Below are positions 27,540 to 49,749 of a DNA stretch of 64,000 nt, one piece after another (position 1 is the stretch's first letter; the number at the start of each line of letters is the position of its first letter). The translations under genes and the position numbers were made by a program. Source of the DNA: Escherichia coli (GTDB lineage: Bacteria; Pseudomonadota; Gammaproteobacteria; Enterobacterales; Enterobacteriaceae); the NCBI RefSeq assembly GCF_044647545.1, contig NZ_CP172818.1; one strand, 5' to 3'. The notes under the pieces were generated by a model. It ran no database searches and had not been told where the DNA came from. It saw nothing but the letters and a program-made list of their open reading frames with translations.

Positions 27540-29273
27540 GTGAATATTCAGGCTCTTCTCTCAGAAAAAGTCCGTCAGGCCATGATTGCGGCAGGCGCGC
27601 CTGCGGATTGCGAACCGCAGGTTCGTCAGTCAGCAAAAGTTCAGTTCGGCGACTATCAGGCTAACGGCATGATGGCAGTTGCTAAAAAACTGGGTATGGC
27701 ACCGCGACAATTAGCAGAGCAGGTGCTGACTCATCTGGATCTTAACGGTATCGCCAGCAAAGTTGAGATCGCCGGTCCAGGCTTTATCAACATTTTCCTT
27801 GATCCGGCATTCCTGGCTGATCATGTTCAGCAGGCGCTGGCGTCCGATCGTCTCGGTGTTGCTACGCCAGAAAAACAGACCATTGTGGTTGACTACTCTG
27901 CGCCAAACGTGGCGAAAGAGATGCATGTCGGTCACCTGCGCTCTACCATTATTGGTGACGCAGCAGTTCGTACTCTGGAGTTCCTCGGTCACAAAGTGAT
28001 TCGCGCAAACCACGTCGGCGACTGGGGCACTCAGTTCGGTATGCTGATTGCGTGGCTGGAAAAGCAGCAGCAGGAAAACGCCGGTGAAATGGAGCTGGCT
28101 GACCTTGAAGGTTTCTACCGCGATGCGAAAAAGCATTACGACGAAGATGAAGAGTTTGCCGAGCGTGCACGTAACTACGTGGTAAAACTGCAAAGCGGTG
28201 ACGAATATTTCCGCGAGATGTGGCGCAAACTGGTCGACATCACCATGACGCAGAACCAGATCACCTACGATCGTCTCAACGTGACGCTGACCCGTGATGA
28301 CGTGATGGGTGAAAGCCTCTACAACCCAATGCTGCCGGGTATCGTGGCGGACCTGAAAGCCAAAGGTCTGGCAGTAGAAAGTGAAGGCGCGACCGTCGTA
28401 TTCCTTGATGAGTTCAAAAACAAGGAAGGCGAACCGATGGGTGTGATCATTCAGAAGAAAGATGGCGGCTATCTCTACACCACCACTGATATCGCCTGTG
28501 CGAAATATCGTTATGAAACGCTGCATGCCGATCGCGTGCTGTATTACATCGACTCCCGTCAGCATCAACACCTGATGCAGGCATGGGCGATCGTCCGTAA
28601 AGCAGGCTATGTACCGGAATCCGTACCGCTGGAACACCACATGTTCGGCATGATGCTGGGTAAAGACGGCAAACCGTTCAAAACCCGCGCGGGTGGTACA
28701 GTGAAACTGGCCGATCTGCTGGATGAAGCCCTGGAACGTGCACGCCGTCTGGTGGCAGAAAAGAACCCGGATATGCCAGCCGACGAGCTGGAAAAACTGG
28801 CTAACGCGGTTGGTATTGGTGCGGTGAAATATGCGGATCTCTCCAAAAACCGCACCACGGACTACATCTTCGACTGGGACAACATGCTGGCGTTTGAGGG
28901 TAATACCGCGCCATACATGCAGTATGCTTACACGCGTGTATTATCCGTGTTCCGTAAAGCAGAAATTGACGAAGAGCAACTGGCTGCAGCTCCGGTAATC
29001 ATCCGTGAAGATCGTGAAGCACAACTAGCAGCTCGCCTGCTGCAGTTTGAAGAAACCCTCACTGTGGTTGCCCGTGAAGGCACGCCGCATGTGATGTGTG
29101 CTTACCTGTACGATCTGGCCGGTCTGTTCTCTGGCTTCTACGAGCACTGCCCGATCCTCAGCGCAGAAAACGAAGAAGTGCGTAACAGCCGTCTGAAACT
29201 GGCACAACTGACGGCGAAGACGCTGAAGCTGGGTCTGGATACGCTGGGTATTGAGACAGTAGAGCGTATGTAA
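27540..29273 (+). CDS. argS: Arginine--tRNA ligase, 577 aa
   Basis: Class I aaRS with the HVGH motif ([10 protein letters not shown]). Confidence 0.97.
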
Positions 29274-29326
29274 TCGGTTATACCAACAGCCGATGTCATG
29301 GAGACCGCTTTTTATTTTTTTATCAT

Positions 29327-29719
29327 TCAACGATAATTCACAATCACTTCATTCCGTTGTACCTTTAGCGGCGGAATTAACCGCCCACCGCCAGGCACTT
29401 CCCAGATAAATCGCAACGGTTCTATCGCCGGTATACCGGAAAAGGCCACGGTGGTTCCACTCTGCCCTTCTAATTCGACACAACGAGATTGCGAACACAA
29501 GCGAACCCGCAGTCCTGCAGGTGTCGGGCCGATAAGCTGATAACGCCACGCCACCAGCGTCATCAATCCTGCAGCAGGTTGTCGAGTAGAAAGAGGCGCT
29601 GACGACATCGATTCACCACGGTGATTCAGCGTAACGCCCACACTACTCGCCTGCCACATCCCCTCCCCCGCGGCTTGCACCAGCAGCGGAAACAATAATA
29701 TTGCTAATAAGGTTCTCAT
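29327..29719 (-). CDS. flhE: Flagellar protein FlhE, 130 aa
   Basis: MRTLLAILLFPLLVQAAGEG... signal peptide; last gene of flhBAE; its ATG overlaps the flhA stop. Confidence 0.9.
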   Translation of the reverse strand: MRTLLAILLFPLLVQAAGEGMWQASSVGVTLNHRGESMSSAPLSTRQPAAGLMTLVAWRYQLIGPTPAGLRVRLCSQSRCVELEGQSGTTVAFSGIPAIEPLRFIWEVPGGGRLIPPLKVQRNEVIVNYR

Positions 29720-32938: not shown

Positions 32939-33105
32939 GTCGCCAATCCTGGAAAGAGTATTAAGCGTAAATGATGCCAGATCGCAAAGCGTTCAATGGT
33001 TTGAGTAAGGGGCAAAACAGGCGGGATTTAGGGCGTTTGCTGCCAAAAATAGATAGTGATGCGTTTAGTCGGATGCGGCGTTTTCGCTTATCACGCCTCA
33101 AAAAA

Positions 33106-33188
<83 letters not shown>

Positions 33189-44658: not shown

Positions 44659-45009
44659 TCAGGCCCTTTTCTTGCGCAGCGCTTCTTCAGGCTGATTAAC
44701 ATCATTCAGCAAGCGTGTTGAGAGCATGATGCCGGTATGAATTTGCTGGAGATCGTCAACGCGGGAATCTTGCGTCAATTGAGTAATCGTCTGGTGGCTG
44801 TCAAAACGGAAGTGACAAACCAGTTGATTGGTTTCTGCCAGCTTAACCATTTGCGGAAGAGTCAGTGCCGCTAACGTTGTCGCCATTTCTTCATTTATGC
44901 CGAGACGAAACATAGCGGACGCTTTGTCCTGAACAATCAGACGCTGTGCAAGTAGTAAATATGACAAGTTGATGTCATAAATGTGTTTCAGCAACTCGGA
45001 GGTATGCAT
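44659..45009 (-). CDS. flhD: Flagellar master regulator subunit FlhD, 116 aa (119 aa if the upstream MGI Met is used)
   Basis: [38 protein letters not shown]... Confidence 0.95.
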
Positions 45010-45270
45010 TATTCCCACCCAGAATAACCAACTTTATTTTTATGCGGTCTCACCGCACCCCGTGATGTCGCCGGGAAGCCCCGGTAAAAAATAATTAGCA
45101 TTAGAATAGTTGCGATAAGCTGCAATAAGCAGAACCACCTTTTTGGTTTAATAAGTCCTTACAAATAGAAAGGGGTCTTTACACTTATCTAAGATTTTTC
45201 CTAAATCGACGCAACTGTACTCGTCACTACACGCACATACAACGGAGGGGGGCTGCGATTTTCAATAATG

Positions 45271-45286
45271 TGTGATGCAGATCACA
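45271..45286. promoter_or_regulatory. CRP-binding site in the flhDC promoter
   Basis: Perfect palindrome TGTGATGCAGATCACA about 260 nt upstream of the flhD ATG, matching the CRP half-sites TGTGA/TCACA. Confidence 0.75.
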
Positions 45287-45961
45287 CAAAACACTCAATT
45301 ACTTAAATTTAACACAAATCATCAACAAAAATACAACTTCCATTCAATCTCTTTATTAATACACCTTCCACCATCCACATATAAAACACATTCGAATTCT
45401 TACACCACCCTCAACTAAAGGACACAAAAACAAACCAACACCTCAAAAACACCACATACACTAAACAAGCAGCATCACCCATAAATGTATAAGTCATACT
45501 TTTGTTTTGGGTGTATTTCAATCTGTTAAAAAGTTTTTCGCAACGCTAGCAAGCAAAAATGAAACAGGAATAATCGAAATGGGATGTTGCGCACAGTTAA
45601 AATAACTCACCGTAAATAATCATCTGCTATAAATAATCACTTTCATGCAATACCCGATAAGCTATTTTTAAACAGACACTTACCGCACAACAAACTAATT
45701 AAATACAAAGAAAGGCAACAATCAACCTAATGTTAATAAAATGTTTTGCATATATTAACCACTTGTTTAATATGGGAAATCAGTACATTATTTTCTTATA
45801 AATACAGTTGAAATCATATGATCACCGAGAGTGATTGATTAATTATCTTTACTAATGACCAGACTAATATTTACCTGTTTTACTGAGTTGGGATTGCGTC
45901 GTTTCTCCATTAGGAGTAAAGCTTTAATGTCACCTGCAGTTCACAGAATAAGGAACAGGTT

Positions 45962-46390
45962 ATGAGCTATAGCAATATTCTTGTCGCCGTTGCGGTTACA
46001 CCGGAAAGTCAGCAACTGCTGGCAAAAGCGGTATCTATCGCCAGGCCAGTAAAGGGACACATCAGTTTAATTACTCTCGCTTCCGACCCGGAAATGTACA
46101 ATCAATTAGCCGCGCCGATGCTTGAAGATTTACGCAGCGTGATGCAGGAAGAAACGCAAAGCTTTCTTGATAAGTTAATTCAGGATGCGGGGTATCCCGT
46201 TGACGAGACGTTTATTGCCTACGGTGAGTTAAGCGAACATATTCTGGAGGTTTGTCGCAAACATCATTTCGATTTGGTGATTTGCGGTAATCACAATCAC
46301 AGTTTCTTTTCGCGAGCATCCTGCTCGGCGAAAAGAGTGATTGCCTCTAGTGAGGTCGATGTGCTGTTAGTTCCACTTACGGGAGATTAA
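45962..46390 (+). CDS. uspC: Universal stress protein C, 142 aa
   Basis: MSYSNILVAVAVTPESQQLLAKAVSIARP... UspA-family fold. Confidence 0.92.
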   Translation: MSYSNILVAVAVTPESQQLLAKAVSIARPVKGHISLITLASDPEMYNQLAAPMLEDLRSVMQEETQSFLDKLIQDAGYPVDETFIAYGELSEHILEVCRKHHFDLVICGNHNHSFFSRASCSAKRVIASSEVDVLLVPLTGD

Positions 46391-46396
46391 CCGCTC

Positions 46397-49749
<3,353 letters not shown>

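Follow-up and report, generated by a model that had tools for sequence, protein, structure and literature searches.

Activating insertions of IS5, IS1 and IS3 in the flhDC regulatory region of Escherichia coli have been described (Barker 2004; Wang & Wood 2011; Lee & Park 2013; Fahrner & Berg 2015, as summarised in PMC5100188 and PMC5493358). According to these summaries, IS insertions at the flhD hot spot raise flhD expression and motility. For IS5, the hot spot published in PMC5100188 is a TTAA located 96 to 99 bp upstream of the flhD transcription start. The target-site duplication generated by IS1 is given as 8 to 9 bp (PMC12428005). Strain K-12 MG1655 carries IS1H in this region (NC_000913.3, 1978503-1979270), in the order ACTTAA-CATAAATG-IS1H-CATAAATG-TATAAG.

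In the window analysed here, i.e. the whole stretch of 64,000 nucleotides of E. coli DNA, the minus strand encodes motB-motA-flhC-flhD, and uspC starts on the plus strand at position 45962. The flhD transcription start was placed at 45207 by collinearity with the asflhD end and the flhD +1 position of MG1655. The CRP core is centred 71.5 bp upstream of this presumed start, and other E. coli are identical there save for one polymorphic base. Upstream of the CRP site the window carries an insertion of 173 bp. Like the described IS5, IS1 and IS3 insertions it occupies the flhDC hot spot, with its left edge exactly at the TTAA used by IS5 (-99 to -96). Unlike these, it is not an intact mobile element, and it is known here from an assembled sequence alone. 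The features of the region are listed below, with the strand where one applies.

44659..45009, minus strand: flhD coding sequence, native, ATG at 45009 (ORF list and annotation of homologous loci)
45271..45286: CRP core TGTGA-N6-TCACA, native and intact (sequence)
45303..45306: TTAA, left edge of the insertion, -99 to -96 from the flhD transcription start (sequence and collinearity of the start)
45307..45479: insertion of 173 bp, seen in the window sequence only, A-rich, 5 G (clean alignment gap of 173 columns)
45307..45399: left ~92 nt of the insertion, single G at 45394 within GAATTC (no detectable relative)
45400..45479, minus strand: copy of the IRL end of IS1 (its terminal ~115 nt), riddled with gaps and largely stripped of G (local alignment, z = 16)
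45480..45487: CATAAATG, 8-bp sequence bordering the insertion on the right; in MG1655 it is the duplicated target of IS1H (junction comparison)

The region had attracted attention by its composition. An earlier note on this DNA described a tract just upstream of the flhD CRP site without any G from 45287 to 45393 and with 5 G from 45281 to 45480. Base counts confirmed both figures (A47, C30, T30 and G0 for the shorter stretch; A91, C63, T41 and G5 for the longer one), and the position relative to the CRP core was correct. The five G's are located at 45394, 45420, 45421, 45469 and 45472, and the full G-free run extends over 113 nt (45281-45393). No other stretch of the 64-kb window comes near this length without one of the four bases; after it, the longest ones without G are a poly-A patch of 61 nt (33096-33156) and 47 nt within the same tract (45422-45468). 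The length of the run is far past chance. At the G fraction of the window (0.24) we calculated 0.76^113, or about 3e-14 per start and about 2e-9 per window, and with the lower G fraction of the native part of the intergenic region (about 0.16) a single start still has a probability of about 2e-9. Native DNA makes up no more than 26 nt of the run (45281-45306), and genomes without the insertion exhibit an unremarkable G-free run of only 33 nt at the same place.

With 61 C's and 5 G's between 45287 and 45480, the composition would suit a Rho-utilisation-like tract of a plus-strand transcript, for which C should greatly exceed G over some 80 nt or more of transcribed, unstructured RNA. The plus-strand RNA is unstructured. 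No promoter-like site was found in the tract or reading into it, and the DNA as such probably does not exist in the strain. A known RNA or structured element was rejected: Rfam yielded no match for the insert, and its fold z-scores were 0.2 and 0.9.

The suggestion of the earlier note that the tract might be native flhDC regulatory DNA with an intrinsic strand asymmetry was refuted by comparison with other genomes. The flhD-uspC spacer measured 952 bp in the window and 779 bp in two typical E. coli, and the alignment showed one clean gap of 173 columns. The window thus does not match the canonical flhD upstream sequence base for base, and nearly all of the G depletion resides in the extra 173 bp. 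A spacer query of 943 bp matched 5,421 of 5,426 complete E. coli genomes with a maximum coverage of 86%. The typical match comprised about 770 bp split in two pieces, and only in K-12 derivatives among the 5,426 genomes did it reach into the insert. More than 100 of these genomes are at least 99% identical to the window, and all of them are without the insertion. It is also absent from the nearest relatives, which are about 99.98 to 99.99% identical on both flanks. The closest genome, CFSAN061771 (locus L004), is contiguous over the insertion point (27593 to 27594) and departs from the window by 1 mismatch over the 12,156 bp of one flank and by 3 differences over the 12,588 bp of the other. 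In ten more public contigs with an identical UspC the spacer was 779 to 782 bp long, and no further carrier of the insert was found in the contexts of UspC, FlhB and AspS.

The 173-bp block (45307-45479) was also searched alone. It had no match among the 5,426 complete E. coli genomes, in 72,556 plasmids or in phages, and exact pieces of it were not found in 100,044 species genomes, IMG/VR or the JGI metagenomes. A second copy is absent from the window. The open reading frames of the insert are spurious (at most 48 aa), have no relatives and are absent from a collection of 15 billion proteins. The tract is therefore not native flhDC upstream DNA, as it is absent from every other E. coli examined; position alone speaks for native origin, and the probability left for it is negligible. 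Because 45307-45479 is not part of the canonical spacer, no footprint or curvature argument made on native DNA applies to it. The location given in the earlier note, the flhD upstream region where IS insertions alter motility, was right, and the link to IS elements proved decisive.

Over its final 81 nt the insert could be aligned, with many small gaps, to the IRL end of IS1 (the terminal 115 nt), oriented as in IS1H. The local alignment reached a score of 88, compared with 26.9 +/- 3.7 for shuffles (z = 16), and three stretches of 16, 11 and 11 nt agree exactly with the IS1 end. The IRL end on the minus strand reads GGTGATGCTGC...TTTAGTGTATG.TGGTGTTTTTGAGGTG. In the global alignment the A, C and T of IS1 were mostly retained in the right part of the insert. 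Of the 44 G's of IS1, 13 were replaced by A, 14 by C and 4 by T, while 9 were deleted and 4 kept. Since the G's of the IS1 end are lost while A, C and T mostly stay, the G depletion is a property of how the IS1 copy was degraded.

In MG1655, IS1H lies between ...ACTTAACATAAATG and CATAAATGTATAAG. The right junction of the window, at which ...GCAGCATCACC meets CATAAATGTATAAG, is identical to that of MG1655. The insert and IS1H share the junction nucleotide on the uspC side (GCAGCATCACC followed by CATAAATG) and the orientation, and they agree in the terminal 11 nt and in two further stretches of the IRL end, 11 and 16 nt long. In contrast to IS1H, with 768 plus 8 bp, the insert has only 173 bp and is devoid of the IRR end, insA/insB and the target duplication. 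The G's of IS1 are almost all deleted or replaced in it, and its inner 92 nt are unrelated to IS1. A search for the inverted repeats of IS1 (GGTGATGCTGCC... and GGTAATGACTCC...) revealed an IRL-like end at 45469-45479 and inward, while the left end, ATTTAACACAAATC, has no inverted repeat. No target-site duplication was found; CATAAATG occurs once only, to the right of the insert, and the left flank ends with ACTTAA.

Several candidates for the origin of the insert were tried and rejected. An intact IS1 would have about 768 bp instead of 173, insA/insB frames, a left inverted repeat and a target-site duplication of 8 to 9 bp, all of which are missing. An IS1-derived MITE was discarded for want of terminal inverted repeats and a target-site duplication, and no further copy occurred in the window, the 5,426 E. 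coli, the 100,044 species genomes, IMG/VR or the JGI metagenomes. A hypermutated copy of nearby DNA (G-to-A, deaminase or bisulfite-like) was rejected, since collapsing G to A, C or T and searching the window again gave hits at chance level only. A superposition of two template signals in register was rejected on inspection, as the IS1 match needs many indels.

The left 92 nt gave no significant match to IS1 in either orientation with plain, G-wildcard or G-collapsed scoring. Specifically, an origin from the IS1 interior or IRR end was not significant with plain or G-wildcard scoring. The same was true for the native flanks and for the target-site duplication joined to the IRR of IS1. An 8-mer (CACCTTCC) hinted at an IS5 end for the left part, and an 11-mer repeated 174 nt apart hinted at a noisy tandem copy of the native flank; neither was significant. 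Read-through of Illumina Nextera or TruSeq adapters was not significant either.

The whole window was then considered in a three-way comparison with the lineage of its nearest relatives (L004, L030) and with MG1655 (L032, L005, L031). At 1,175 of the 1,177 SNP sites at which the lineage and MG1655 differ, and at every indel of up to 11 nt, the window had the state of the lineage. MG1655 and the lineage differ by at least 125 nt at six sites in the window, and the window is anomalous at all six. At five of them, the flhD tract included, its defect is unique among the 5,426 genomes. The lineage has islands at two of the sites; the window has neither, and its junction is clean at one of them, leuZ. 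The six sites are the following.

Site a, 16353/16354, aspS/nudB junction: MG1655 has 125 additional nt; the window is 1 base short of the lineage junction and nudB is frameshifted (40-mer in 0 of 5,426 genomes)
Site b, 22026, cmoB-torZ junction: MG1655 has an additional REP block of 133 nt; the window is 2 bases short (40-mer in 0 of 5,426 genomes)
Site c, 29277-29328, argS-flhE: MG1655 has 768 additional nt (yecV, yecT); the window is garbled (best match 87.8% among 5,426 genomes)
Site d, 33039-33150: the 2,386-bp dgt island of the lineage is missing; a noisy K-12-type REP runs into 44 A's (33107-33150) (maximum genome coverage 71%)
Site e, 45307-45479: MG1655 has IS1H and the lineage nothing; the window has the 173-bp tract
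Site f, 58066, leuZ: the lineage island is missing; the window is collinear with MG1655

At site c the argS terminator hairpin of the lineage, GCCGATGTC...GACATCGGC, is garbled in the window, and the end of flhE is chimeric, with the CGT codon of the lineage followed by the TGA stop of K-12. Outside the six sites, only ten isolated changes separate the window from its nearest relative: nine single-base substitutions and one A-run that differs in length by 1 nt.

These results are best explained if the tract is no regulatory element of the cell but, probably, an artefact of assembly or consensus that was templated on, or contaminated by, MG1655 and that represents a residue of IS1H. The anomalies sit at six of the six large indels between MG1655 and the lineage, while the small variants are correct. 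A local event at flhD cannot account for this, because the unique defects follow MG1655-specific structure over 42 kb, whereas an MG1655-templated or MG1655-contaminated consensus accounts for all six anomalies. MG1655 sequence would have served as the base of, or been mixed into, the consensus of a CFSAN061771-like lineage. Single-base differences and indels of up to about 11 nt would have been converted correctly to the state of the sample, while differences of at least 125 nt would have been mishandled, with MG1655-only segments cut out imprecisely and lineage-only islands not brought in. Most of IS1H (768 bp plus the 8-bp target duplication) would have been removed at the flhD site and a residue left behind. 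The outer end of this residue, next to CATAAATG, would still be readable as the IRL end with its G's dropped or turned into A or C, and further inward it would decay to noise consisting of A, C and T only. The technical cause may have been reference-guided polishing or consensus calling, or contamination of a long-read consensus with MG1655. The element would have come from the MG1655 backbone or contaminant, and the G's would presumably have been lost at the consensus step.

Structural-variant sites left unresolved in a reference-guided or polished consensus resemble the window in that small variants are right, large segments present only in the reference are cut out imprecisely, insertions present only in the sample are missing, and junk appears only at junctions. 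We know of no documented tool signature that produces a G-free, A-rich residue, and the link to consensus tools is one that we infer. It counts against the artefact account that no template of the left 92 nt could be traced among IS1, IS5, the native flanks, the target-site duplication plus IRR, and the Illumina adapters. The two missing islands could be natural absences.

The same artefact may have had another cause, namely a long-read consensus from a sample mixed with K-12 MG1655, or a generative or predictive fill-in knowing the MG1655 alleles. Sites c and d do read as blends of lineage and K-12 alleles, and poly-A and A-rich low-complexity output is, in our judgement, typical of degenerate consensus or generation. 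Contamination alone, however, leaves the absence of both lineage islands unexplained, and nothing in the sequence separates a mixed sample or a fill-in from reference templating; we consider such a cause unlikely. A real and very recent insertion, i.e. the scrambled rest of an IS1 that entered the flhD hot spot exactly as in MG1655, in site and orientation, and later lost most of its sequence, is slightly more doubtful still. The right end is truly IS1-derived, and the site is a documented hot spot of IS1, IS5 and IS3 at which insertions raise flhD expression and motility. Nevertheless, the target duplication, the left inverted repeat and open reading frames are lacking, and no known process strips nearly every G from an IS end while the flanks stay 99.99% identical. 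The five other unique defects at MG1655-specific indel sites are likewise beyond a local biological event.

It is very improbable that the 173 bp are real as the footprint of a novel process at the flhD hot spot, such as an aborted transposition or excision of IS1 combined with error-prone, G-avoiding or untemplated repair. If this were true, a new spacer would rewire flhDC control. An engineered G-less spacer or barcode upstream of flhD would fit the three-letter composition of A, C and T and the GAATTC at 45394-45399. Deliberate construction has only a minute probability; against it stand the degraded IS1 end that makes up half of the insert at the MG1655 junction, the lack of recombination scars and of any match in the 72,556 plasmids, and the companion defects elsewhere in the window.

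If the insertion were real, its 173 bp would shift the upstream repressor sites (H-NS, LrhA, OmpR and others) away from the CRP site and the promoter, and could derepress flhDC as whole IS elements do. With the artefact as the preferred reading, the native flhDC control region is ordinary here, and the asymmetry belongs to probable assembly junk. An empty site or a genuine IS1 in the actual strain would both be ordinary biology, since IS insertions at this place are known to raise flhDC expression. The record should be used with caution, as it contains at least five defects: the frameshifted nudB, the destroyed argS terminator, 44 nt of poly-A, the two missing islands and the flhD tract. Regulatory or comparative inference from its intergenic regions would mislead. 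Composition anomalies beside famous IS hot spots should be compared with close relatives before anything else.

Some minor observations were made during the comparison. The frameshifted start of nudB leaves an open reading frame of 137 aa that begins with GTG. The same 137-aa NudB frame was present, through a different frameshift, in Logan SRR11867861_54, an indel-rich contig of 4.2 kb from the same lineage in which aspS, yebC and ruvC are split by homopolymer deletions. The A-run between otsB and araH at 48732 is one base shorter than in CFSAN061771 and has the K-12 length; the change may be private to either of the two strains. The 2.4-kb island between flhB and cheZ of close relatives (L004 13052-15437, at about 33052/33151 of the window) codes for a dgt-like dGTP triphosphohydrolase with an HD domain and for a hypothetical protein of 250 aa; absent from both the window and K-12, it may be an anti-phage module. 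The island of the relatives at leuZ (tRNA-Leu; L004 40182-47115, and L008) comprises a type I restriction-modification system, a DUF262 protein, an M48 peptidase, a cold-shock-domain protein and an IS3 remnant.
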